From positions 116,796 to 180,795 of the forward strand of contig JAFAGO010000029.1 in NCBI GenBank assembly GCA_023422635.1: DNA of 64,000 nucleotides. Reading direction: 5' to 3'. This DNA is from Bacteroidota bacterium (GTDB lineage Bacteria > Bacteroidota > Bacteroidia > Flavobacteriales > Weeksellaceae). Shown here one piece after another: positions 5,038 to 51,295 of this stretch. The translations under genes and the position numbers were made by a program. The notes beneath the pieces are model-generated. The model had not been told where the DNA came from, did not search any database, and saw only the letters and a list, made by a program, of their open reading frames with translations. How positions within the stretch are numbered: the stretch's first letter is position 1; every line of letters begins with the position of its first letter.

Positions 5038-5711
5038 AACCTATTTTCGTCGGCAAAACTATAATATCCTTTCTGCGAAATGATGAGGTGATCGAGAAGG
5101 TTGATATTTAATAATTTGCCAGCATCCTTTATTTTTTGGGTAATATTCAGGTCGGATTTGCTGGGCGTAAGATTTCCTGAAGGATGATTGTGCGCCACGA
5201 TAATACTGGTTGACCAATGTTCTAAAGCTGTTTTAAAAAGTACGCGAACATCTACAACCGATTCTGCAATTCCGCCTTTGGTTAAATTGGTTCGGTGAAT
5301 GACTTCATTATTCTGATTCAGAAAGATGGCCCAAAATTCTTCGGTGTGAAGATCAGCAAGCAATGGTCCTAAAACTTGATAAGCTGTTTTGGAATCGGAA
5401 ATTTTTACTCTTTGCGGAATTTCTTGTTGAGATTTCCTTCGACCGATTTCTAATGCAGTTGCAATTGAAATCGCTTTCGCTTCGCCAACGCCTTTAAATT
5501 TTAAGAAATCTTTTATGGTAAATTTTGCTAAAGTATTCCAATTGTTATTGGCAGCATCCAAAATGCGTCGCGCCAATTCCACAGCACTTTCATTACGGTT
5601 TCCGCTTCCCATAATAATCGCGAGCAATTCTGAATCGGAAAGTGAATCTTTGCCTTTAAGCAAAAATTTTTCCCGAGGTCGATCATCTTCAGCAAGTGAT
5701 TTTATGGACAT
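5034..5711 (-). CDS. radC: RadC-family JAB/MPN domain protein
   Basis: 225 aa. N-terminal DRPREKL-type HhH region and JAMM motif HNHPSGNLTPSKSD. Confidence 0.9.
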   Translation of the reverse strand: MSIKSLAEDDRPREKFLLKGKDSLSDSELLAIIMGSGNRNESAVELARRILDAANNNWNTLAKFTIKDFLKFKGVGEAKAISIATALEIGRRKSQQEIPQRVKISDSKTAYQVLGPLLADLHTEEFWAIFLNQNNEVIHRTNLTKGGIAESVVDVRVLFKTALEHWSTSIIVAHNHPSGNLTPSKSDLNITQKIKDAGKLLNINLLDHLIISQKGYYSFADENRL

Positions 5712-8502: not shown

Positions 8503-9504
8503 TTAGTTTTCTAATTTGTCTACAAAAGGATAATTTTCCTGAGCATATACATACTCGTAGATTTTCTCTGGATCTGGATATGGAGAATTTTCCATAAAAT
8601 CTACACATTCTTCAACAAAATCTTTAGATTCTGAATCAATTGCGTTTAATTCTTCTTCTGTTGCCCAACCATTTTGTAAAATTCTGTTTTTCACCAATTC
8701 GATAGGATCGTCTTCTTTATGAAGCGCAACTTCTTCTTTGGTTCTGTATGGTTCAGCATCGGACATAGAGTGACCTCTGTAACGATATGTTCTGGCTTCA
8801 ATAAAAGTTGGACCATCACCTCTTCTTGCTCTTTCGATTGCTTCATGAGCTGCTTCTGCCACTTTTTCAGGATCCATAGCATCTACTGCTAAACAAGGCA
8901 TTTCATATCCTAATCCTAATTTGTAAATATCTTCGTGGTTTGCAGTCCTGTGTACTGAAGTTCCCATTGCATATTGGTTATTTTCTACCACAAAAACTAC
9001 AGGAAGTTTCCAGTTCATTGCCATATTGAAGGTTTCGTGCAAAGATCCTTGTCTTGCAGCTCCATCTCCAAAAAACGTCATACAAACCGCTTTACGGTCA
9101 AAATATTTATCTGCAAATGCGATTCCAGCGCCCAAAGGAATTTGGCCTCCAACGATACCGTGTCCACCATAGAAACGGTGCTCTTTGCTAAAAATATGCA
9201 TAGAACCACCCATACCTCCAGAAGTTCCGGTTGCTTTACCGCAAAGTTCAGCAAGGATTCTTTTCGGATCAACACCCATTGCCATTGGATGAATGTGACA
9301 TCTGTAGGCCGTAATCATACTGTCCTTCGTCAAATCCATAGCGTGAGCAAAACCAGCAGGAATTGCTTCCTGACCGTTGTATAAGTGTAAAAAACCTCTA
9401 ATTTTCTGTTTTAGGTAAAGAGAACGGCATTTATCTTCAAACCTTCTCCACATCGTCATGTCTTTATACCAATTCAGGTAGACATCTTTAGAAAACTCTT
9501 TCAT
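8503..9504 (-). CDS. pdhA: Pyruvate dehydrogenase E1 component, alpha subunit
   Basis: 333 aa. ThDP-binding GDGAARQG...ENNQYAMGTS and YRYRGHSMSD phosphorylation-loop-like motif. Confidence 0.9.
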   Translation of the reverse strand: MKEFSKDVYLNWYKDMTMWRRFEDKCRSLYLKQKIRGFLHLYNGQEAIPAGFAHAMDLTKDSMITAYRCHIHPMAMGVDPKRILAELCGKATGTSGGMGGSMHIFSKEHRFYGGHGIVGGQIPLGAGIAFADKYFDRKAVCMTFFGDGAARQGSLHETFNMAMNWKLPVVFVVENNQYAMGTSVHRTANHEDIYKLGLGYEMPCLAVDAMDPEKVAEAAHEAIERARRGDGPTFIEARTYRYRGHSMSDAEPYRTKEEVALHKEDDPIELVKNRILQNGWATEEELNAIDSESKDFVEECVDFMENSPYPDPEKIYEYVYAQENYPFVDKLEN

Positions 9505-41364: not shown

Positions 41365-42933
41365 TTACTTTTCTGAGTCCGTACGCATCGGCTGTTTCTG
41401 AACCGGCCATTTGGTAGATTCTCCATTATTGTTGTACGGCATAATTCTTTTTTCTCTGCTATTAAAATGAGGATCTTCCGAAGCCATATACGCCAAAGTT
41501 GCCGTAAGAATTACATTGCTTTTCACTTCGTCAAAAATAATTTTATCGTATGTATCTTTATTGGTATGCCAAGTATAACCGAAATAGCCCCAATTCAGCG
41601 AACCGAGCATGAATGCGGGAACTCCGGCTGCAACAAATGACGAGTGATCCGAACCTCCTCCACTTGGCATTCCAGGGAAATCAGTTTTAATATGATCGCG
41701 AATATTTTTTGGAACGGCACTTAAATACCTTCCAATAAAATCATAAGAATCGGCGAAACCTTGTCCACCCAAACTCACCACTCTACCCGTTCCGTTATCT
41801 TGATTAAAAACAGCTTGAATGCCCTTCACGATTTCTGGGTGATCCGCGACAAAAGCGCGCGAGCCATTCAATCCTTGCTCTTCGCTTCCCCAAAGACCAA
41901 TAATAATGGTTCGTTTATTATTAGGATAGATTTTTTTTAGAATTCTGATGGTTTCCAACATCGTTAAAGTGCCCGTTCCGTTATCTGTCGCTCCTTGTGC
42001 GCCATCCCATGAATCCAAATGCGCAGAAAGAACAACGTACTCGTTTGGTTTTTCTTTTCCTAAAATCATCCCAACGGTATTAAAAGTGGTTGCTTTAGGA
42101 AGTGATTTTGATTCTATTTGGAACTTAATTCTTGGCTTTATACCTTGTTCTGCTAGTCGATACAAACTTCCGTAATCTTCCAATTCAATATCGAACATTG
42201 GAATTTTTTTCGTTTTCGCGCTGAAGATTCTATTTGCTCCCATCACTCCTGTCCAATTTGATATAGCGATTCCTGCAGCTCCCGCTTTTTCTAAGACTTC
42301 GGGTAAGGAATTTTGATCGTATCCAATCTTTCTGAAATAGGCAATGAAATTTTGATTCGCCGAATCTTTTTCAGCTTTGAGTTTCTCATAAAGTTCTGGC
42401 GTTGCAAAATCTTTTATTTGTTCATCGGATCTGCCGATTTTTTGGTATTGCGAAATGAGAACAACTTTCCCCTTTACACTTGGTAGAAAAGCTTCAAAAT
42501 CTGCTTTATTCGAAACATTAGGTAATACGACAACTTCTGCTTCAATCGGCTTTTTCGTTGAAGGGCTCCATGCCAATTGCATTGCGTTGAGGGTTTTAAT
42601 TCGTGGAGCAATCATATCGATATGCGTAATTCCTCGTTGCCAACCTTTCCACGTTCCATACGCTTCGTTGGAAGCATCAATTCCCCAAGAATTCATTTTT
42701 GAAACTGCCCATTGATGTGCTTGTAGCATTTCGGGAGTGCCGGCCAAACGAGGGCCAATACCATCAAGAAGTTCAAATGCCATCGATTCTAATTGAGAAT
42801 TGGTATTGACTTCATCCACAAATTTTTGAACAATAGGTTGCAGGTTTTCTGTAGAATGTTCTAATTGTTGTCCAAAATAAAAAGTAAAATTTTGTAGCAA
42901 AAAAAAGAGTGCAATAAATATGGTTTTCTTCAT
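41365..42933 (-). CDS. M28-family aminopeptidase with PA domain
   Basis: Signal peptide and zinc ligand motifs HLDSWDGAQGATDNGTG and GLWGSEEQGLNGS. Confidence 0.85.
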   Translation of the reverse strand: MKKTIFIALFFLLQNFTFYFGQQLEHSTENLQPIVQKFVDEVNTNSQLESMAFELLDGIGPRLAGTPEMLQAHQWAVSKMNSWGIDASNEAYGTWKGWQRGITHIDMIAPRIKTLNAMQLAWSPSTKKPIEAEVVVLPNVSNKADFEAFLPSVKGKVVLISQYQKIGRSDEQIKDFATPELYEKLKAEKDSANQNFIAYFRKIGYDQNSLPEVLEKAGAAGIAISNWTGVMGANRIFSAKTKKIPMFDIELEDYGSLYRLAEQGIKPRIKFQIESKSLPKATTFNTVGMILGKEKPNEYVVLSAHLDSWDGAQGATDNGTGTLTMLETIRILKKIYPNNKRTIIIGLWGSEEQGLNGSRAFVADHPEIVKGIQAVFNQDNGTGRVVSLGGQGFADSYDFIGRYLSAVPKNIRDHIKTDFPGMPSGGGSDHSSFVAAGVPAFMLGSLNWGYFGYTWHTNKDTYDKIIFDEVKSNVILTATLAYMASEDPHFNSREKRIMPYNNNGESTKWPVQKQPMRTDSEK

Positions 42934-43061: not shown

Positions 43062-43099
43062 AAATCCCGAAACGCCATTTAAATAGCACTTCGGGATTT
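43062..43099 (-). terminator. Hairpin plus T-run, inferred original terminator of tRNA-Arg now separated from it
   Basis: Perfect AAATCCCGAA/TTCGGGATTT stem directly abutting the left 18-bp tRNA 3'-end copy. Confidence 0.6.
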
Positions 43100-43116
43100 G
43101 TAGACCCATGAGGAAT
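43099..43116. repeat. Left att direct repeat (duplicated tRNA-Arg 3' end)
   Basis: TGTAGACCCATGAGGAAT, identical to 49370-49387. Confidence 0.9.
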
Positions 43117-43250
43117 ATAAATACGGTATTATCCTAAATTAGATTGAATTTACAGATTTTCAAATAAAATCATAAATACCTGATTATCAATATACATAAA
43201 TACTATAAAATTAAAATAGGTTAAAATGGATTTTAAATAAAAAAACATTT

Positions 43251-43271
43251 GGTTCTCCAACGGTTCTCCAA
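43251..43271 (+). repeat. Tandem GGTTCTCCAA x2 (candidate arm-type recombinase site, left)
   Basis: GGTTCTCCAAcGGTTCTCCAA. The same tandem recurs at 49306-49326. Confidence 0.6.
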
Positions 43272-43286
43272 GTTTTAGAATTATGC

Positions 43287-43294
43287 TATATTTG
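43287..43294 (+). promoter_or_regulatory. Candidate -7 box (TATATTTG) for the integrase gene
   Basis: Matches TAnnTTTG 21 nt upstream of the int ATG and just downstream of the tandem repeats. Confidence 0.35.
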
Positions 43295-43315
43295 TAATGT
43301 TCAAACTTTACCGCT

Positions 43316-44659
43316 ATGGCAACCGCAAATTTTCTTATCCGTTCAAAGAAAGACAACTCTACCATTTTCCTATCTTTTTCAATAGATAGACAAAATAAAT
43401 TCAGACGTGCAACACGTGAAACCGTAAACCCTGAAAATTGGAACGGAAAAATAAATGCTACAGGGAAACCCAAAAATATCAAGTCAGGAACAAAGAGTTT
43501 TTTAACTGACCACGAAAACCTAAAACAAAGACTTTCTGCATTACAGAATTTCGTACTGAATCAATACGCCCAAAGGACAGAAACCGAAATAATAAACGGT
43601 GATTGGCTGGATGAGGTTATAAACGCATTTTACAACGATGGGAAAAGGACTATTGAACTTGATTTCATAGATAATTATTTAACGCATTACAAAACCAATA
43701 TACTACCATTCCGCAAGTACAGAGGACAACCAATAACCCACCGCACACAGCAGAAACAGGAAACTATTATTTCAAAATTTCAGGAATTTTTAACTACTGA
43801 AAAGAAACGCCCAAAAGTATCAGATTACAATTTGGCAATGGGAAACCGTTTTGTATTGTTTTTGCGAGGTCAAAACCTTTCTGATAATACCGTAGGAAAG
43901 TATCTAAAATACACCAAAACCATTTTTAAAAGTGCAAGACAGGAAAACATTCAACTGAATGAGCAGATAGACGAAATTAAGGGATTTACTGTTGATACAC
44001 CTACACACTATCTTACAGTACATGAACTTTTGAAAATTCAGGATTTGAAATTAGTAGGTAACGAAAAACTACAATTAACACGAGATTGGTTAATTATCGG
44101 ATGCTACACAGGACAAAGAGCATCTGACCTATTTTCAATGACTAAAAAGAAAATTGTAAACATAAACGGTAGAGATTTCATAAACTTGGTACAAAAGAAA
44201 ACTAAACAAAATGTTCCTGTACCTATTCACAATGAAGTGAAGAAAATTTTAGAAAAATACAACGGTGATTTTCCGCCTGTATTTTCAACAAATATTGAGA
44301 GCAGTAAAACAATATTCAACACCCATTTAGAAACCGTTTGTAAACTTGCAAATATTGACCGTTTAGAATATGGTAGAGTTTACGACAAAGGAAAAAAATG
44401 TTATGTTTTTGGAAACTATCCATTTTATCAATTGGTATCCTCACACGTTTGTCGTAGAACTTTTGCAACAATGTATTACAGTAAAATTCCCACAGCAATA
44501 ATAATGAGTGTTACAGGACACAAAACAGAAAAAGAGTTTTTGGGATACATTGGTATTGAGAACAGCACATTATCAGAACAGATGTTTACATATTGGGAAC
44601 AGTTTGACAAACAACAAACCCAAAAAACCCAAATCAGAAACCCAAAAACCGCAAATTAA
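43316..44659 (+). CDS. int: Tyrosine-type site-specific integrase
   Basis: 447 aa. Bacteroidota Arm-DNA-binding-like N-terminus. Catalytic pattern GQRASD ... SHVCRRTF ... GHKTEKEFLGY. Confidence 0.9.
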   Translation: MATANFLIRSKKDNSTIFLSFSIDRQNKFRRATRETVNPENWNGKINATGKPKNIKSGTKSFLTDHENLKQRLSALQNFVLNQYAQRTETEIINGDWLDEVINAFYNDGKRTIELDFIDNYLTHYKTNILPFRKYRGQPITHRTQQKQETIISKFQEFLTTEKKRPKVSDYNLAMGNRFVLFLRGQNLSDNTVGKYLKYTKTIFKSARQENIQLNEQIDEIKGFTVDTPTHYLTVHELLKIQDLKLVGNEKLQLTRDWLIIGCYTGQRASDLFSMTKKKIVNINGRDFINLVQKKTKQNVPVPIHNEVKKILEKYNGDFPPVFSTNIESSKTIFNTHLETVCKLANIDRLEYGRVYDKGKKCYVFGNYPFYQLVSSHVCRRTFATMYYSKIPTAIIMSVTGHKTEKEFLGYIGIENSTLSEQMFTYWEQFDKQQTQKTQIRNPKTAN

Positions 44660-44683
44660 TTTTTAACCCTAAATATTTTTATC

Positions 44684-44953
44684 ATGGAAAAACCATTAGC
44701 ATCATTTGAAAAAGATTTAAAAAAATTGGAAAACTTGGTACATTCTATTAAAACTATGAATACCGATACAGAGAACCGATTATTTGATTTTGAAACAAAC
44801 TTTAATGAACAAAAAGTACGCATTGAAGATTTAGAGCCAATGTATAGAAACAGTTTCTCGATAAATGAACTACTGGAACTAATTACCGAAATGAACTTAC
44901 AGGAACGTTTTACAGATTATTCCAATGCAACTTATCAAAAGGTTTATAATTAG
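44684..44953 (+). CDS. Hypothetical protein
   Basis: 89-aa ORF 24 nt after int, predicted helical. No recognisable motif. Confidence 0.45.
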   Translation: MEKPLASFEKDLKKLENLVHSIKTMNTDTENRLFDFETNFNEQKVRIEDLEPMYRNSFSINELLELITEMNLQERFTDYSNATYQKVYN

Positions 44954-44965
44954 AACCAATTTCTT

Positions 44966-44997
44966 ATATTTCATTTTATAAAAAAATATTTCATTTT
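44966..44997 (+). repeat. 12-bp direct repeat ATATTTCATTTT x2 upstream of higB (candidate operator)
   Basis: Copies at 44966-44977 and 44986-44997, spaced 20 bp start to start. Confidence 0.5.
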
Positions 44998-45012
44998 CTG
45001 AAACTTTATTTT

Positions 45013-45020
45013 TAACTTTG
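45013..45020 (+). promoter_or_regulatory. Candidate -7 box (TAACTTTG) for higBA
   Basis: Matches TAnnTTTG and ends 4 nt before the higB ATG, implying a leaderless or near-leaderless mRNA. Confidence 0.3.
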
Positions 45021-45024
45021 TCCT

Positions 45025-45318
45025 ATGGTGATTATCTCGAAAAAGATTCTAAAAGAATACGCAGAATTACACCCGAAACATAGCGCACCATTAGAACGTT
45101 GGTATGATATAACCGAAAATGCGGACTGGAAAAACTTTGCAGAATTAAAAAACGATTTCAATAGTGCAGATAATGTGGGCGATAGTCTTTTTGTATTCAA
45201 CATTAAAGGGAATGATTGCCGATTGGTAGCACGTATATTTTTTAATGTAAGAACTGTTTTTATCCGTTTTATAGGAACACATCCCGAATACGACAAACTA
45301 AATTTAAAAGAGCTTTAA
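45025..45318 (+). CDS. higB: Type II toxin HigB (RelE-fold mRNA interferase, HigB_toxin family)
   Basis: 97 aa. W..W....DW...A....F...D pattern, FNIKGNDCRLV and the IRFIGTHPEYDK signature. Confidence 0.85.
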   Translation: MVIISKKILKEYAELHPKHSAPLERWYDITENADWKNFAELKNDFNSADNVGDSLFVFNIKGNDCRLVARIFFNVRTVFIRFIGTHPEYDKLNLKEL

Positions 45319-45319
45319 G

Positions 45320-45682
45320 ATGAAAATAACAAACGAAAAACAATATAACACCGCCTTAAACCTCATTAATGAGATAATGAAAAAAGGGGAAGATAATGTA
45401 TCGGAAAAAGAATTGGAAACCTTGCAAACATTAACCAACGAAGTTAAAGAATACGAGAACCAATACTATCAATTTCCTGCACCAAAAACCATTATCGAAA
45501 TGGTGAAAATAAAAATGTTTGAAAAAGAGATGAGCCAAACGGAACTATCGAAAAAAACGAATATTCCTTTGCCTAAACTAAACCAAATATTAAAGGGCAA
45601 CCGAAAACCCGATATAGATTTTCTGAAAGGTATTTACCACAACCTAAATATTTCTGCAGATTTCATTTTTAGTAGAATTTAA
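45320..45682 (+). CDS. higA: Antitoxin HigA (XRE-type HTH)
   Basis: 120 aa, 1 nt after higB. C-terminal HTH MSQTELSKKTNIPLPKLNQILKGNRKPDIDFL. Confidence 0.8.
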   Translation: MKITNEKQYNTALNLINEIMKKGEDNVSEKELETLQTLTNEVKEYENQYYQFPAPKTIIEMVKIKMFEKEMSQTELSKKTNIPLPKLNQILKGNRKPDIDFLKGIYHNLNISADFIFSRI

Positions 45683-45687
45683 TACAG

Positions 45688-45711
45688 GGTGCAGAAATGC
45701 ACCTTTTTTTT
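45688..45711 (+). terminator. Rho-independent terminator after higA
   Basis: GGTGCA/TGCACC stem with a GAAA loop, followed by T8. Confidence 0.7.
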
Positions 45712-45731
45712 AACGTTCAAACCCACAACCT

Positions 45732-46682
45732 ATGAGTGACGATATTCGGATTCAAATATTTAATAATTTCGATGAATTTCAAATAAATTTTAGTCCGAAA
45801 AAAATTGAAAAAGAATTAATACAAAAGGATGTAAAATATGAGGACTATTTAGAGCATCTTAAAGATATTTACATTGATATTTATGAAGTTCTTACGGATA
45901 GATTAGATAGTTTAAAAAACCTACAAACGTTAGTATCAAATCATTATGAAACAATTATTAACATTGATTTTCTAAAAGATAATAGTTCTTATAATCCTTC
46001 ACTCTCAAAAGATTTATTAATTCAAAAACAAAAAGATATTTACATTGATAAAATATTTAATTCAATAAATAATTTAAATAAATTAGGAAAAAAAATAAGA
46101 TTTCAATTACAAAGTGACGACTTTAAAGAAAATTACAACTTTGAAGATTATCAAGATTATGATTTTGAAATTCTCAATGATAATATTAGCGAAAATATTT
46201 CTGAAGATGATTATTTAAAAAAAGAGGTTACAAAAATTCTCTTATTCTTAAATAACAGAATAAATGACGAACATTCAAAGATTGTAGAATATATCGAAAC
46301 TAAAAGTAATGTTAATAAGAAGAAATTACCACATATTGAAAGTCTTGAAAAAGTTCTTTATGATAGTGTAGATAGAGATAAATCAAACACTTTAGCCAAC
46401 GAGGTTTTTTTTGGTGATTTAGGAAAATTAGAATTACTAATTTTTTTTAATGAAAACTTTACTATATCAGCAAAAAACTTTACTGATAAAACAAAATACA
46501 CGCAGATATATTTTTATTTAACTTCAATTTGTGAACACAACATTCCTAAAAAACCCTATCAAGAATTAGTAAAAAACTTGTTTGGATATGATTATAAAGG
46601 TGCAGAAATAAAGGGAACAACTTATAAACACCAAACTTTTTTAGGAAAAATACATTCAGACTTCAAAGACATAAAAAGTTAG
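45732..46682 (+). CDS. Hypothetical protein (orphan cargo)
   Basis: 316-aa uninterrupted ORF, very AT-rich, rich in Asn/Lys/Asp/Ile. No motif recognised. Confidence 0.55.
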   Translation: MSDDIRIQIFNNFDEFQINFSPKKIEKELIQKDVKYEDYLEHLKDIYIDIYEVLTDRLDSLKNLQTLVSNHYETIINIDFLKDNSSYNPSLSKDLLIQKQKDIYIDKIFNSINNLNKLGKKIRFQLQSDDFKENYNFEDYQDYDFEILNDNISENISEDDYLKKEVTKILLFLNNRINDEHSKIVEYIETKSNVNKKKLPHIESLEKVLYDSVDRDKSNTLANEVFFGDLGKLELLIFFNENFTISAKNFTDKTKYTQIYFYLTSICEHNIPKKPYQELVKNLFGYDYKGAEIKGTTYKHQTFLGKIHSDFKDIKS

Positions 46683-46751
46683 CATATTTTAAATAAGAAT
46701 AAAAAGGTAATGAAATAGGAATAAAACCCGAATAACTCATTATTTCCTTTG

Positions 46752-46773
46752 TACTGTTCAATTTAAAACAGTA
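46752..46773 (+). promoter_or_regulatory. Inverted repeat TACTGTT-N8-AACAGTA just upstream of the xis-like gene
   Basis: Perfect 7-bp arms ending 5 nt before the ATG at 46779. Confidence 0.4.
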
Positions 46774-46778
46774 TAAAG

Positions 46779-47054
46779 ATGACATCAATTCAGTTTATCG
46801 GTTTAGAGCCGACCGCCTTAATTCAGGAAATAACCGCACAGGTTAAAAATTCCTTACTTCCCGAACTCACAAAAACTTTACAGAACGATAATCTCGAATA
46901 CCTTTCCGCTGAACAGGTATGTAAAAGATTATCCATTACAAAACCAACCTTACACGAATGGAAAAAACGAAAAATTATCCGTTCGTTCAAATTAGGTGCG
47001 CGGGTATATTACCGCTGGGATGAGGTGCAAAATGCAATGATTATTAACGATTAA
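46779..47054 (+). CDS. xis: Excisionase-like helix-turn-helix protein (MerR/HTH_17 type)
   Basis: 91 aa. LSAEQVCKRLSITKPTLHEWKKRKIIRSFKLGARVYYRWDEV is typical of Xis/AlpA-type HTH. Confidence 0.7.
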   Translation: MTSIQFIGLEPTALIQEITAQVKNSLLPELTKTLQNDNLEYLSAEQVCKRLSITKPTLHEWKKRKIIRSFKLGARVYYRWDEVQNAMIIND

Positions 47055-47065
47055 TTTTTATTGCA

Positions 47066-47473
47066 ATGGAAAAAAAGACGTTCATTCCCGACAGTTACAA
47101 AATGGTTTATTCTTTTGACCTCGCAAAAAAGACCTTTGCACAATTCAAATTACAAACCGCAGAAAAACCGCTATTATCTAACCTTATCCGTTTAGAGAAA
47201 AACAAAGGTTACAATTTAATTAAAGATGCAATTCTACTATTGCGAATCCGAAATGCAACTAATTGGAGTAAATGCAATCTTTCAGGATTAAGAGCAACGG
47301 ATGTGCCTGATTTTTACTATTCAGATTTGCCGATAAACAGCGTAAAATCTTTGTGTATCGTGAAATACCTTTCCGATGTTGGAACAATCGAAATACGCGC
47401 CTGTAAACAATTCTATCCGCACAACAAAACCGACCGTACCCGATTGGTAAACTACCTTATACAAAACTTTTAA
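47066..47473 (+). CDS. Hypothetical protein
   Basis: 135-aa ORF 11 nt after xis. No motif recognised. Confidence 0.5.
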   Translation: MEKKTFIPDSYKMVYSFDLAKKTFAQFKLQTAEKPLLSNLIRLEKNKGYNLIKDAILLLRIRNATNWSKCNLSGLRATDVPDFYYSDLPINSVKSLCIVKYLSDVGTIEIRACKQFYPHNKTDRTRLVNYLIQNF

Positions 47474-47482
47474 GAACAAAAA

Positions 47483-47509
47483 AAAGGGAGTGCAAACCGC
47501 ATTCCCTTT
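47483..47509 (+). terminator. Candidate terminator hairpin
   Basis: AAAGGGAGTGC/GCATTCCCTTT stem with one G-U pair. The T-run is short. Confidence 0.45.
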
Positions 47510-47563
47510 ATAGGCGTTCAAACCTCACAACAGTCAAACCATTGATTTTACAAAGATAACAAA

Positions 47564-48853
47564 ATGCTGGATAATATAAAGTTTAGAATCAAAGATAAAA
47601 CAGTAATAAATAAATTACTGTTACATTCTGATTTTACACCTTTGTATTCACGTGTTAATTCATTAGCGAAATACAAACACAAAGACATTGGAGCAAAGTT
47701 ACATTTTGAACTTAAAAAAGAGTTTGTAAATGGACAATTTGCAGGATATGAGTTTGCAGATTTATGTATAAGTCCGCACTATTATTTTAACCAATACCGC
47801 CACAATGGTAACGATTTCACGCCCGAAAATTGCATCAATTCCGTTTATGATATTCTTACCTACATTGGAATAAAACCTAACGAATTTAACGCACTAAAAG
47901 TAGTAAACCTCGAATTTGGTTTGAATCTCATTCCTGAAACTGATATAAAAACAATCATCAATGGACTTTTGTTTTACGGAAAAACGCCTTTTAAAGTTGG
48001 TAATTTTCCATACTTCAAAAAGACCGATGCAACCGCCTACAAATTCATAAAGGCATACGCCAAAGGATTACAATTTATTGAAGTTCCCGAATACGGTATA
48101 CATCCTAACACATTCAGATTTGAGATTAAAACGAAAGAGGCAAAATACTTAAGAACTGATGAAATCAGAATCTACAATGCAACAGACTTGCTGAAATTAG
48201 ATACTTATAGCCGATTAGGGCAAACCTTATTGAATGAATGGGAAAATGTATTGATAACGAATTTAACGCCTGATTTGAAAGGTTTAAAATCCGATGAAGT
48301 GAAGTATCTCACAAATGCCAAAACCTTTGATTTTTGGCAGGGAATAATCACTAAAAAACACCGAAATACATTCGGCATAAACAAGGTAAAATACTTCAAA
48401 ATACTTCAAGGGAAAAACAATCTGCACACCCAAATAAAACTACAAATTATTGACAAATTATTTACTTTTTCAAAATGTGCAAATTCCACACAGAGAACAC
48501 CGATAAATAGGGGAAAAGTGCAAAACTCAAAAAACACCTTAACCCTGATAAACGTGGAAAATGCACATTTCAATAAATGTTTAGTAACGGGATTAGATAT
48601 TTCAATGCAGAAAACAAGTAGTAAATTTTTGTGTCATTCAGGACTAAAATATTATAAAGAGAATAAACCTACAATTTACAAAGAATTGGAAAAAAAATAT
48701 TTGAAAGATAAACAAAGAAGTGAGAGTGAGGAAAGACAAATATATTTAATCTGTAAAAACATAAGGGACGTTGATAGTAATCCACGCAACAACAGGAAAC
48801 AGTTTGAGAAACGGAACTATCATCCGAATCAATTACAATTTAGATTTCTGTAA
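47564..48853 (+). CDS. Hypothetical protein (possible element replication/maintenance factor, speculative)
   Basis: 429-aa ORF, the largest cargo gene. It has a basic C-terminal tail with a C-x20-C pair and is followed by ~500 bp of non-coding AT-rich DNA. Confidence 0.55.
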   Translation: MLDNIKFRIKDKTVINKLLLHSDFTPLYSRVNSLAKYKHKDIGAKLHFELKKEFVNGQFAGYEFADLCISPHYYFNQYRHNGNDFTPENCINSVYDILTYIGIKPNEFNALKVVNLEFGLNLIPETDIKTIINGLLFYGKTPFKVGNFPYFKKTDATAYKFIKAYAKGLQFIEVPEYGIHPNTFRFEIKTKEAKYLRTDEIRIYNATDLLKLDTYSRLGQTLLNEWENVLITNLTPDLKGLKSDEVKYLTNAKTFDFWQGIITKKHRNTFGINKVKYFKILQGKNNLHTQIKLQIIDKLFTFSKCANSTQRTPINRGKVQNSKNTLTLINVENAHFNKCLVTGLDISMQKTSSKFLCHSGLKYYKENKPTIYKELEKKYLKDKQRSESEERQIYLICKNIRDVDSNPRNNRKQFEKRNYHPNQLQFRFL

Positions 48854-49305
48854 TCTCTACTAATTGTAGATTGGCAGAAAATCAAATTTGAAAAAACGAT
48901 TTTTTTAGTTAAAATTTAGAGGGGCGGGGTATTTTTTCACTTCGCCTTTTGCGTTTTTTTCCTCTAACAATATATATACTACTATAAAACAGGTCATTAA
49001 CTCAATATAATTTATATATAACGAACTACTACAAAAGACATAAAAACTACATAGAAACCTAAAAATCAAAACATTACAACACAAACAAAGTCAATATTAA
49101 ATTATCTACCTGATAAAGAGGTATTGGTTTAGTATAAATGGACTGGTATAGTACCATAAGATTTTTAATAAAGTGTTTAAAAACTTAAAATATAAAGATG
49201 TTGAAATATGGAAAGTCAAGAATTTGAATCTCTCACCAATTTAGGTGAGCAAAAAGGAAAAACCGAAATAAAAAAAAACACGTTTAAAATGTAAAAATTC
49301 AAACT

Positions 49306-49326
49306 GGTTCTCCAATGGTTCTCCAA
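49306..49326 (+). repeat. Tandem GGTTCTCCAA x2 (candidate arm-type site, right)
   Basis: GGTTCTCCAAtGGTTCTCCAA, in the same orientation as 43251-43271. Confidence 0.6.
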
Positions 49327-49329
49327 AAT

Positions 49330-49358
49330 AAAAAAAACACCCTGAAAATCAGAGTGTT
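49330..49358 (-). terminator. Element-encoded terminator immediately downstream of the tRNA-Arg 3' end
   Basis: On the minus strand: AACACTCTGA/TCAGGGTGTT stem with one mismatch, followed by T8. Confidence 0.6.
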
Positions 49359-49369
49359 AATTACAATTA

Positions 49370-49387
49370 TGTAGACCCATGAGGAAT
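49370..49387. repeat. Right att direct repeat (within tRNA-Arg)
   Basis: TGTAGACCCATGAGGAAT, identical to 43099-43116. Confidence 0.9.
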
Positions 49388-49443
49388 CGAACCTCAACCT
49401 AAAGAACCGGAATCTTTAATTCTATCCATTAAACTATGGGTCC
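49372..49443 (-). tRNA. tRNA-Arg (anticodon CCG)
   Basis: Hand-folded cloverleaf. Acceptor GGACCCA/TGGGTCT, anticodon stem AAAGA/TCTTT with loop TTCCGGT, T-arm TGAGG-TTCGATT-CCTCA, D-loop containing GG. Confidence 0.85.
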
Positions 49444-49531: not shown

Positions 49532-51295
49532 TTAGAAAGTAATTTTTACACCGCCTAAAACCTGAGCGCCCAAAACTTTATATCCTTTAAAGGTTTGATA
49601 GTTGGCGTTGAGTAAATTATTTCCGTGTGCAAAAATACTGAAATTTTTATGGATTTTATACTCTGCAGAAAGATTTAAATCTGCGTATCCGCCAACCTTT
49701 TCATTACGAAGTTCTTGAATGCCATCAACTGGAAAAGTTTGAGGAACTAAAAACATATTGGTCGTTCTATCGCTTACAAAATATCCATTAAAGCCAAGTT
49801 GAAGTTTTTTGTCGAGCATTGTATATTTGGCTCCAATATTTGCTTTCAATAAAGGTTTGTAAAAAATATGTTCATAGTTATCTAAATCGTATTTGGTATA
49901 GTTCAGTTCGCCATTAATAACAAGATTTTCGAGAGGGAAATACTGAACGCTACCTTTCACTTCACTAATTTTTCCGTTATCATAAACAGCGGAAAATGTA
50001 TTGGCAAATCCGTAAGGAGTTTGAACGGCGTTATCAGCATTGATCAAATTATTCCCTTCGTAAAACATAATATCATTTGCTTTACCAAATCCTGCGGAAA
50101 AATCATATTTTAAGTTTTCTTGAATATCCCCGCGTAAACCAAGATAAAAATGATACTTGGTTTCTGTAGGTTTCAATACTTGGTCGGAAAGCAAATACGG
50201 ATTTTCTTGAAGCATATCCGTATATGAATTGAGTTTCAAACCACCATCAACTCCTGCATAAAATTTAAATTCATCAGCGGCGGCAATTTGCAATTCTGCT
50301 CTTGGAAACCAATACGTTTTATTCGATTTCAGTTGTTCTTCTAAAAGAGAATTGTTGTTTTTGGAAGTATTAAAAGTAAAATCAGAGCCCAACATTAAGT
50401 ACGATTCTCCTTTAAATAACGTTACTTTCGGGGAAATCGTTCCGTTGAAAAAACTCGAAGTATTGGCATTTAAAATATCAAAAGTTGTGCTTTGCGTGTC
50501 AATTCCTAAACCTAAATCTCCATTTAACGTAACATCATTGTACACCGGAACGGAATGCTTCGAAAGATTAAATAAAGCAGAAGCTTTGTTTTCGGAAGCA
50601 TCAAAAACATCGGTTAAAAAAGACGCTTTTACACGAGCATCATTAAGAATTTCATTGGAATAAAAATCGTAATATCCATCAACATTAATTACGTTTGTTT
50701 TCTGTTTAATATCAATATCAGCACTTGGATTCACGGCATAAATCCCGTAATAATTATACTGATTCGTGGCATAACCTGCGTTGATGTTAAATTTACCTTG
50801 TTCTCCGTAGTTATTTAGAAAAACATTCAAATCTGCTTCGCTTTGTTTCGATTTCCAATCGTAGATTTTCTTGAGTCCGTTGGTTGAATTAAAGTGTACA
50901 TCAGCACCCACTTCCATTTTACTTTCCAAAACTGTAGAAATATTTGCATCCGCCAAAATTCGACCGTAATTTCCCATTCCAAAACGCACATAATTATTTT
51001 GATACGTGTTGCTGAATTCGGGCGCGATATCCGAACCTTGAATGGTTGATGTTTTAAAATCAGAAACCGCAGGAACATCTGTAATATCATATTTCAGATT
51101 TAAAGAATCCTGAATTTTCTTTTCTTTTGGGGGATAATTTTTAACGGTTTCTACTGAAGTTTTTTTCTTTTCAATTTTGCGAATTTCGGGTTCTCTTTTT
51201 TTATTTAAGATGAGTTTTTCTTCCTTAATCTGTGCGAAAGAAAAAGTCGAAACGCCCAATAATAGGAAAGAAAGTATTTGAATTTTTGTATTCAT
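49532..51295 (-). CDS. Outer-membrane beta-barrel protein (receptor-like barrel, no obvious plug)
   Basis: Signal peptide ...FSFAQ, alternating beta-strand pattern, C-terminal ...GGVKITF. Confidence 0.65.
   Translation of the reverse strand: MNTKIQILSFLLLGVSTFSFAQIKEEKLILNKKREPEIRKIEKKKTSVETVKNYPPKEKKIQDSLNLKYDITDVPAVSDFKTSTIQGSDIAPEFSNTYQNNYVRFGMGNYGRILADANISTVLESKMEVGADVHFNSTNGLKKIYDWKSKQSEADLNVFLNNYGEQGKFNINAGYATNQYNYYGIYAVNPSADIDIKQKTNVINVDGYYDFYSNEILNDARVKASFLTDVFDASENKASALFNLSKHSVPVYNDVTLNGDLGLGIDTQSTTFDILNANTSSFFNGTISPKVTLFKGESYLMLGSDFTFNTSKNNNSLLEEQLKSNKTYWFPRAELQIAAADEFKFYAGVDGGLKLNSYTDMLQENPYLLSDQVLKPTETKYHFYLGLRGDIQENLKYDFSAGFGKANDIMFYEGNNLINADNAVQTPYGFANTFSAVYDNGKISEVKGSVQYFPLENLVINGELNYTKYDLDNYEHIFYKPLLKANIGAKYTMLDKKLQLGFNGYFVSDRTTNMFLVPQTFPVDGIQELRNEKVGGYADLNLSAEYKIHKNFSIFAHGNNLLNANYQTFKGYKVLGAQVLGGVKITF

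Follow-up and report, generated by a model that had tools for sequence, protein, structure and literature searches.

Within a 64,000-nucleotide stretch of a Weeksellaceae genome (contig JAFAGO010000029.1; the whole stretch is referred to as the window), the 3′ end of a tRNA-Arg(CCG) gene is occupied by a 6,271-bp insert with eight open reading frames (ORFs). We consider it likely that this insert is an integrative, excisable, plasmid-like rolling-circle replicon, one that probably hitch-hikes on a helper, and that it belongs to a large, unannotated family in the Flavobacteriia. The argument draws on empty sites in conspecific genomes, on circular relatives assembled from sequencing runs, and on the predicted fold and active-site motifs of ORF429, the product of the last gene, which we call rep. 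An earlier description made from the letters of the window alone, here called the sequence-only reading, had proposed a minimal integrative element at this tRNA. Feature coordinates are collected in Table 1, and public contigs and loci are cited by our L numbers.

Exactly two copies of the 18-mer TGTAGACCCATGAGGAAT are present in the 64-kb window (43099-43116 and 49370-49387), with no third match at up to 2 mismatches and none in 100 shuffles. ARAGORN and Rfam both place the right copy at the 3′ end of the tRNA. A 587-aa protein is encoded beside this tRNA, and its identical sequence is present on 11 public contigs. Six contigs from conspecific genomes that encode the identical protein (L031, L033, L034, L035, L037 and L038) lack the element and run directly from the 587-aa gene through the tRNA to an M28 peptidase gene; in L032, the same flank is followed by the eight-gene insert. 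In L031 the left flank, ending in cacttcgggatt, is joined to a single core TGTAGACCCATGAGGAAT and then to the tRNA (cgaacc...), and the intergenic distance at the occupied site exceeds that at the empty site by exactly 6,271 bp. Because the empty-site contigs carry a single core and differ by exactly this length, the insertion is real, precise and polymorphic among conspecific genomes. The hairpin that adjoins the left repeat, read on the minus strand, lies immediately 3′ of the tRNA in L031. The element entered the last 18 bp of tRNA-Arg(CCG) by site-specific recombination, restoring the 3′ end of the tRNA and supplying a terminator of its own, and a hairpin homologous to this replacement terminator stands at the right end of relatives L042, L043, L048, L001 and L041. 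The sequence-only reading had recognized the perfect repeat, the tRNA 3′ end in its right copy and the displaced original terminator at its left, and had pointed to an empty site in related genomes as a check; each of these proved correct, as did its view of a discrete integrative element that is variably present among close relatives. The features by which it had set the insert apart are likewise all present: the eight ORFs between the repeats lie on the plus strand, the flanking genes (41365-42933 and 49532-51295) are both on the minus strand, and GC content is 0.24-0.33 within the element versus 0.35-0.39 in the flanks.

Both arms of the element carry candidate integrase-binding sites. The repeat GGTTCTCCAA has only four copies in the window, all within the two arms, where 0.09 are expected. 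Of 15 delimited relatives, 13 have tandem repeats with the same 11-bp spacing in each arm, again at conserved distances, and the repeat sequence differs with the type of integrase. As a separate observation, the Arg(CCG) core closely resembles GTAGACCCACAGGGA, the tRNA-Gln core at which the closest integrases act (58-80% identity; L011, L016, L042, L043 and L048), and these Gln-type relatives have the final 40-90 bp of the right arm in common with the element as well. Judged by these sequence similarities, this looks like a recent switch of target tRNA. L036, a 9,081-bp contig from Logan with the same flank genes, breaks off after 39 bp of the element right end (9043-9081), which would fit a sample in which occupied and empty sites, or excision, occur side by side.

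Members of the family exist as circles abundant enough to assemble, as is evident from three kinds of contig. Two Logan contigs from two sequencing runs, L049 (6,426 bp) and L050 (6,421 bp), are circularly permuted copies, 100% identical, of a 6,396-bp molecule; their ends overlap by 30 bp and 25 bp, and their break points lie in different genes. L043 and L048 start with exactly 30 nt, composed of 14 nt of the element right end and the 16-nt tRNA-Gln core, after which the element left end follows; this start is the attP junction at a k-1 branching node. Finally, L041 closes inside its right-end hairpin. The sequence-only reading had left room for an immobile element, which is unlikely given that relatives occur as circular molecules.

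The protein on which the replicon interpretation turns is ORF429. Its AlphaFold2 model (predicted local distance difference test, pLDDT, 76 overall and ~90 for residues 1-230) has the crescent beta-sheet catalytic fold of RepDE and RepSTK1. When the model was searched with Foldseek against the PDB, only S. aureus RepDE was matched (4cwc and 4cwe; E 2e-6, probability 1.0), the next match having an E-value of 0.02, and a search of BFVD returned the Inoviridae 'replication-associated protein G2P' and its relatives at E 6e-8 to 1e-4. Across homologues of ~25% identity, D3, H72, N76, N81, E117, G119, N121, K163, Y165, K167 and R185 are invariant, and E187 is nearly so. These residues fall into a motif map, D3, N115xE117xG119xN121, K163xY165xK167 and R185xE187, that can be laid beside the active site of RepD, which consists of D46, R140xD142xA144xD146, R189xY191xK193 and R212xE214, with D46, D142 and E214 binding metal (Carr et al. 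2016, PMC4797284). The corresponding spacings are 48 and 22 residues in ORF429 and 49 and 23 in RepD. ORF429 has the features of a Rep_trans catalytic site, namely a tyrosine with basic flanks, an RxE motif, an acidic strand and an N-terminal aspartate; D3 and E117 were equated with the RepD ligands by position and spacing, not by residue-level structural alignment. The sole segment aligned by hhalign with pT181 RepC (FIKAYAKG...FRFEIKTK in ORF429, FIRIYNKK...WRVEIELK in RepC) puts Y165 on the catalytic Y191. Taken as a model, and with these motifs in view, ORF429 is very probably a divergent nickase of the Rep_trans superfamily.

Homologues of ORF429 are numerous and unannotated. More than 455 were found in Chryseobacterium, Elizabethkingia, Epilithonimonas, Kaistella and Flavobacterium, all named 'hypothetical protein' and with no Pfam domain recorded, and a profile search placed ~1,958 clusters at 50% identity in the family. 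A scan of GTDB genomes yielded 28 related loci, in which an HTH_17 gene and usually an ORF135 homologue precede rep, with the integrase 3-5 kb upstream (homologues occupy the integrase position in 25 related loci). Downstream of rep lies a minus-strand gene for tRNA-Cys, -Gln or -Leu, or tmRNA. Direct repeats of 12-34 bp that match the tRNA or tmRNA 3′ end occur ~200 bp upstream of int; the elements that they bound measure 5.5-9.3 kb and reside in tRNA-Cys, -Gln, -Leu, -Arg or tmRNA. The family backbone runs in the order int, variable cargo, a hypervariable protein at the position of ORF316, HTH_17, small protein and rep; ORF135, the HTH_17 protein and the ORF316 position count as conserved backbone and not as cargo. 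Cargo changes from member to member and includes HigBA (in the window and in L010), Gp49/HTH pairs, HicAB, ParE, a SoFic-like Fic protein and an MmeI-type IIG restriction-modification enzyme. The sequence-only reading had suggested looking for the same layout in other Flavobacteriales, and it recurs in the 28 syntenic loci, with HigBA itself only a variable cargo.

Several further observations concern the make-up of relatives. Two cargo slots can be distinguished: the first lies between int and the gene at the ORF316 position, the second downstream of rep (L016 11814-14567; L003 6848-8233; L041 1581-2765). A protein of ~197 aa with no family match recurs downstream of rep in L006, L007, L009, L010 and L021, and L049 carries DUF3853 beside HTH_17. 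L040 (1-14376 of IMG/VR UViG_3300012252_000039) holds a family member (int 52% identical); a second copy of its tmRNA core, without a tmRNA, lies at 5505-5519, and beyond it is a prophage-like early region with a repressor-like protein, SbcC-like ATPase, RecT, metallo-hydrolase and ParB-like nuclease. Element and prophage appear to be integrated in tandem through the same core. L051 (MT835707.1, an unverified record from human faeces labelled 'Bacteriophage sp.') encodes a distant ORF429 homologue of 390 aa (29.5% identity over 45% of the query) that adjoins an HTH_17/AlpA gene, two Arm-DNA-bind_5 integrases, a Bro-N/ANT antirepressor and an ORF6N protein. Because of this gene neighbourhood, we place the HTH_17-rep module in gut mobile DNA as well, the host group there being probably Bacteroidales.

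A conserved control module immediately upstream of the rep start codon is shared by 27 distinct loci, with a length of 72-92 nt. Its box, TAnnTTTG, is invariant at the TA..TTTG positions while the 'nn' positions vary, and it matches the Bacteroidetes -7 promoter box. Stem-loop 1 pairs in 27/27 loci even though 26 of the sequences differ (mean z -2.8), and stem-loop 2 has a mean z of -4.8. Folding was evaluated sequence by sequence with shuffle controls, as the MAFFT alignments on which RNAalifold was run misaligned the hairpin arms. On this sequence evidence we predict that the module is the gene for a ~65-70 nt antisense (counter-transcript) RNA opposite the rep leader. Alternatively or in addition, the hairpin and GTTCAA could be a candidate nick site or region for Rep, a role that explains the same DNA equally well. 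Rfam detected nothing in the element except the tRNA. Copy number in pT181 plasmids is controlled by a small counter-transcript, which is the analogy for the predicted antisense RNA. A second CAAAGATA (TATCTTTG on the minus strand) lies at 47590-47597, within rep codons 9-12, and might be a second antisense -7 box or mere coding sequence (IKDK).

In the life cycle that we propose, the integrase would bind the core and the GGTTCTCCAA arm sites and, with the HTH_17 protein as excision factor or activator, would excise the element as a circle. ORF429, with Y165 as the catalytic tyrosine and D3, E117 and E187 as a metal site, would then nick the circle and prime rolling-circle replication, allowing the element to persist as an episome. 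The antisense RNA of ~70 nt, transcribed from the conserved -7 box just upstream of the rep start, may control rep as in pT181-type plasmids, and HigBA may stabilize the element or add abortive-infection defence. Because there is neither a mating pore nor a capsid, spread between cells would need a helper. The sequence-only reading had noted that coupling protein, capsid and terminase are missing; none of these, and no type IV secretion system (T4SS) component, was found among the eight ORFs with Pfam, NCBIfam or PHROGs, so dependence on a helper for transfer stands. By analogy, the likeliest route would have ORF429 act as a MOBT-like relaxase that feeds the T4SS of a resident conjugative element; this route is conjecture because no helper, origin of transfer (oriT) or coupling protein was found. 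None of the genes within 10 kb of the element is conjugative. Like an integrative and mobilizable element (IME), the insert has its own integration/excision module with att sites and no mating-pore genes of its own; the relaxase would be the Rep_trans-fold nickase, present as a predicted model, and no oriT or nick site was detected. In Firmicutes, Rep_trans proteins serve both as rolling-circle replication initiators and as relaxases, in Tn916, ICEBs1 and streptococcal IMEs (PMC5704250).

A number of results weigh against this account. The TM-scores of ORF429 to RepDE are low (0.31/0.45), the hhalign E-value for the alignment with RepC is only 0.07, and ORF429 passes no curated sequence model: neither it nor 27 close homologues match Rep_trans (PF02486) or Phage_CRI (PF05144), and on sequence grounds we therefore leave it outside PF02486. 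Among 47 divergent members of the family, sub-threshold matches were obtained to Phage_CRI in 2 (E 0.007) and to Rep_trans in 1 (E 0.03), and a family profile matched no PDB sequence. A tblastn search of 72,556 plasmid records returned no homologue of ORF429; the family is therefore not a known plasmid replicon, and we rejected that identification. No circular contig of this exact element was recovered, all of its contigs being integrated, and the helper, oriT and coupling protein that transfer would call for are missing. The predicted antisense promoter has no clear -33 element. Finally, no nick site, double-strand origin or single-strand origin (sso) was found, the sso search covering the right arm at 48955-49185; this segment folds no better than shuffles on either strand (z +0.8, +1.3), and an sso-like palindrome there was rejected. 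The claim of the sequence-only reading that no replication or transfer gene can be recognized thus holds for sequence-profile searches and fails for ORF429 once fold and active-site motifs are considered.

The principal alternative to a plasmid-like replicon is life as a satellite. The element would then excise and replicate upon infection by, or induction of, a helper phage and be packaged by it, either in tailed particles, in the manner of phage-inducible chromosomal islands (PICI) or phage-inducible chromosomal minimalist islands (PICMI), or by a filamentous phage that coats its single-stranded DNA (ssDNA) product, as with RS1 and TLC in Vibrio cholerae. Its small size recalls minimal satellites, as does its combination of int, an AlpA-like HTH_17, a replication initiator and toxin-antitoxin or defence cargo. 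The best named viral fold match of ORF429 is to Inoviridae G2P, and the gut contig labelled as phage has HTH_17 and rep beside Bro-N/ANT genes. The L040 member shares a tmRNA core in tandem with a prophage-like region, but this position may just reflect a common integration hot spot. Moreover, no terS, capsid-redirecting, cos/pac, coat or Zot-like gene was detected with Pfam or PHROG profiles, no inovirus helper is known here, and the family is scarce in viral collections, with 1 relative in 2.9 million IMG/VR contigs and 1 weak match in 50,697 phage records; a profile alignment of the family proved too divergent to be used for scanning viral contigs. We judge a satellite to be unlikely. An inovirus prophage was rejected outright, as the eight ORFs gave no match to a Zot-like ATPase or coat protein in Pfam or PHROGs. 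A bolder proposal, speculative and rather doubtful, is that these elements form an unrecognized class of Bacteroidota 'integrative rolling-circle hitchers', in which a new Rep_trans-like clade makes ssDNA for export by a helper (filamentous or tailed phage, or Bacteroidota T4SS) and the ORF316-position protein and ORF135 make up a helper-sensing, helper-exploiting or anti-phage module. If true, this would amount to a new satellite or defence mechanism, beyond plain IME biology.

ORF429 might instead act purely as a conjugative relaxase at oriT, leaving an IME that does not replicate autonomously and whose circular contigs reflect frequent excision. MobT relaxases are indeed Rep_trans proteins (PMC5704250), the family is absent from plasmid databases, and all 28 genome loci are integrated. 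On the other hand, the closed L049 and L050 circles, which come from two runs and show no chromosomal branch, would be hard to obtain from rare excision, and a conserved module resembling a counter-transcript, such as the one upstream of rep, is typical of copy-number control. The MobT proteins of Tn916 and ICEBs1 also drive replication (PMC5704250). We regard the pure IME as improbable. Least credible is a decaying or immobile genomic islet retained by HigBA addiction, with an ORF429 that has nothing to do with DNA mobility. It would account for unknown ORFs without sequence-family matches and for the long non-coding right arm, but every ORF of the backbone is intact and in synteny with relatives, the att repeats match exactly, presence varies among genomes with an identical flank protein, relatives are circular, and the catalytic motifs of ORF429 are invariant across homologues of ~25% identity.

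Table 1. Features of the element and its insertion site; positions are those of the window.
Feature	Position	Strand	Evidence and remarks
Original intrinsic terminator of tRNA-Arg	43062..43098	minus	8-bp stem ATCCCGAA/TTCGGGAT then T-run; parted from the tRNA by the insertion
attL core	43099..43116		left copy of 18-bp direct repeat; same as tRNA-Arg 3′ end; one copy in empty sites
Left-arm tandem repeat	43251..43271	plus	GGTTCTCCAA x2, 11-bp spacing; candidate arm-type integrase sites
Tyrosine integrase (int), 447 aa	43316..44659	plus	Pfam Phage_integrase 1.7e-8, Phage_int_SAM_5 2e-7; PHROG integrase 5e-22
ORF89, orphan small ORF in cargo slot	44684..44953	plus	no family match
HigB toxin, RelE-like, cargo	45025..45318	plus	Pfam HigB_toxin 1.1e-31; PADLOC PD-Lambda-2_A 1.1e-31
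HigA-type HTH antitoxin, 120 aa, cargo	45320..45682	plus	Pfam HTH_3 1.3e-5
Intrinsic terminator after higA	45686-45705		terminator scan
ORF316, hypervariable backbone-position protein	45732..46682	plus	GC 24-26%
HTH_17 protein, Xis/AlpA-like	46779..47054	plus	Pfam HTH_17 6e-7; TIGR01764 excisionase domain 9e-5, below its cut-off
ORF135, conserved backbone protein	47066..47473	plus	predicted all-beta, 8 strands and C-terminal helix (AlphaFold2 pLDDT 88)
Conserved control module	47478..47558	minus	box, stem-loop 1, TTGAAC, stem-loop 2, T-run
Stem-loop 2, GC-rich	47486-47506	minus	then T-run 47478-47485
Invariant TTGAAC	47516-47521	minus	
Stem-loop 1	47528-47544	minus	
Bacteroidetes-type -7 box, presumed	47551-47558	minus	TATCTTTG
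ORF429 (rep), 429 aa	47564..48853	plus	predicted rolling-circle initiator or relaxase, divergent and Rep_trans/gpII-like; Tyr165 as candidate catalytic residue; D3, E117, E187 as candidate metal ligands
Non-coding right arm	48854..49369		~470 bp unique to element; last 40-90 bp shared with Gln-type relatives (blastn)
Terminator after rep	48919-48950		
Right-arm tandem repeat	49306..49326	plus	GGTTCTCCAA x2; candidate arm-type integrase sites
Replacement terminator for tRNA-Arg, element-borne	49326..49358	minus	hairpin AACACTCTGATTTTCAGGGTGTT then T-run; terminator scan
attR core	49370..49387		right copy of 18-bp repeat; supplies 3′ end of functional tRNA
tRNA-Arg(CCG), integration target	49371..49443	minus	ARAGORN; Rfam tRNA 59.5 bits

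All eight ORFs were searched with profiles from Pfam, PHROGs, NCBIfam and PADLOC. Four genes were recognized, encoding the tyrosine integrase, HigB, a HigA-type helix-turn-helix (HTH) protein and an Xis/AlpA-like HTH_17 protein, and four (ORF89, ORF316, ORF135 and ORF429) had no match. The sequence-only reading had named the same recognizable genes, with which Pfam and PADLOC agree, and had held that the other four match nothing; in these four collections they do not, and ORF429 departs from that description by its fold. It had named the unknown half as the best place for an undescribed function such as defence, helper exploitation or replication; a mainly defensive role is not supported: ORF429 is predicted to be a nickase, ORF135 and the ORF316 position belong to the backbone, and no unknown ORF matched any PADLOC defence model.

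The higB and higA genes are 1 bp apart with the toxin gene upstream, the arrangement of a HigBA type II toxin-antitoxin pair; HigB is 88% identical in L010, and NCBI names one member of its cluster 'HigB family toxin'. A PD-Lambda-2 system was considered and rejected. Component A is a full match (1e-31), B was matched only at positions 7-117 of 402, and C not at all. Because the B match is confined to the first ~110 positions and the C component is missing, the profile evidence identifies the pair as an ordinary HigBA module. ORF89 has no tblastn match in the related loci, and its exact sequence was found only with this element. The HTH_17 gene, a conserved part of the backbone, lies directly upstream of rep in nearly all related loci, and from its sequence the protein is a candidate excision directionality factor or activator.

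Every family member has a gene at the ORF316 position, and this gene is hypervariable. A search of 5.8 billion proteins returned nothing for ORF316 except itself; with its positional homologues it shares only a short motif at the N-terminus and ~100 C-terminal residues, the C-terminal part being shared by some members (similarity of 1e-10 to 1e-23 to L005, L007, L012, L015 and L021), and their alignment was too divergent for modelling. Three independent assemblies of the same element break at ORF316, which is its lowest-GC stretch: L053 and L054 stop right after higA, and L045 begins in the last 59 codons of ORF316. These breaks could reflect strain-level variation or poor coverage of AT-rich DNA. 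ORF135 has 44 homologues, all unnamed, and is syntenic in L003, L004, L006, L007, L009-L011, L013, L015 and L021. Its model found no Foldseek match in the PDB better than E 0.03, and assignment as a single-stranded DNA-binding protein or oligonucleotide-binding fold was dropped for want of a significant fold neighbour.

The right arm contains no plus-strand ORF of at least 50 aa, and blastn revealed no remnants of the genes that relatives carry downstream of rep. In the ~470 bp 3′ of rep (48854-49330) there is neither an ORF nor similarity to relatives nor significant secondary structure. Relatives have 1-4 genes in this place; here the cargo slot may have been emptied.

Small, helper-dependent elements of Bacteroidota are exemplified by NBU1, NBU2 and Tn5520 of Bacteroides. 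In common with our element, these integrate at tRNA 3′ ends and have an integrase followed by small accessory genes, including one for an HTH_17-type protein. They differ in that NBU elements use a MobP-type relaxase and the primase-like PrmN1, whereas here there is a single Rep_trans-like protein; no relaxase or primase family of the kind represented by NBU1 MobN1 (MobP) or PrmN1 was matched in the element with Pfam or NCBIfam. Other gene-poor integrated elements are satellites, such as RS1 (with RstA, a Rep_trans protein) and TLC (with Cri) of Vibrio cholerae, and PICMI, whose main enzyme is an initiator of the Rep_trans/Phage_CRI type or some other replication protein and which depend on a helper for particles. 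In contrast to these, which use XerCD or other recombination routes and have known helpers, the element in the window has a dedicated tyrosine integrase with candidate arm sites, and no helper or packaging signal is known. Rep_trans has been linked to CTXphi (PMC4797284).

The closest parallels are the non-canonical streptococcal IMEs IME_Sga2069_rpmE and IMESag-rpsI and the MobT proteins of Tn916, ICEBs1 and ICESt3 (PMC5704250); the common features are a tyrosine integrase, an HTH protein of excisionase type and a nickase with the Rep_trans fold, in our element a predicted one. These IMEs are likewise small and integrated, carry toxin-antitoxin cargo and lack a mating pore, and their nickase can serve both replication of the excised form and transfer (PMC5704250). 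The element described here differs in residing in Bacteroidota, where all IMEs in a 2017 review had canonical MobP or MobV relaxases (PMC5704250), in having a nickase that PF02486 does not detect, and in targeting tRNA and tmRNA 3′ ends and not ribosomal-protein genes or oriT; in addition, the relaxase role of ORF429 is only putative. With pT181-family plasmids (RepC/RepD; 4cwc, 4cwe), ORF429 shares its predicted fold and the order and spacing of its catalytic motifs, and the small counter-transcript-like unit just upstream of rep recalls pT181 copy control by analogy. Unlike those plasmids, the element integrates by its own integrase, sequence similarity is confined to the motif segment, and the helical C-terminal half of ORF429 is different. 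The kind of element, a small integrative element with a nickase related to rolling-circle initiators, is already known from streptococci. Literature searches found no description of this family, and what is new here is an unannotated Rep_trans-like clade, a defined Flavobacteriia backbone and a predicted antisense regulator.

At the strength given above, these results assign a function to a large unannotated protein family (~1,958 clusters at 50% identity) and extend Rep_trans-type initiators and relaxases to integrative elements of Bacteroidota, biology that largely extends known principles. They also define a compact and recognizable backbone, consisting of int, a variable protein, HTH_17, a small protein and rep together with arm repeats and a predicted antisense unit, that takes toxin-antitoxin, Fic and restriction-modification cargo into tRNA and tmRNA genes in Chryseobacterium, Elizabethkingia, Epilithonimonas and Flavobacterium; pathogens of fish and opportunistic pathogens of humans are among these. 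For Flavobacteriia that are hard to manipulate genetically, the backbone could be turned into a small vector for shuttling or integration, and the family provides a tractable case for how gene-poor 'hitcher' elements move.

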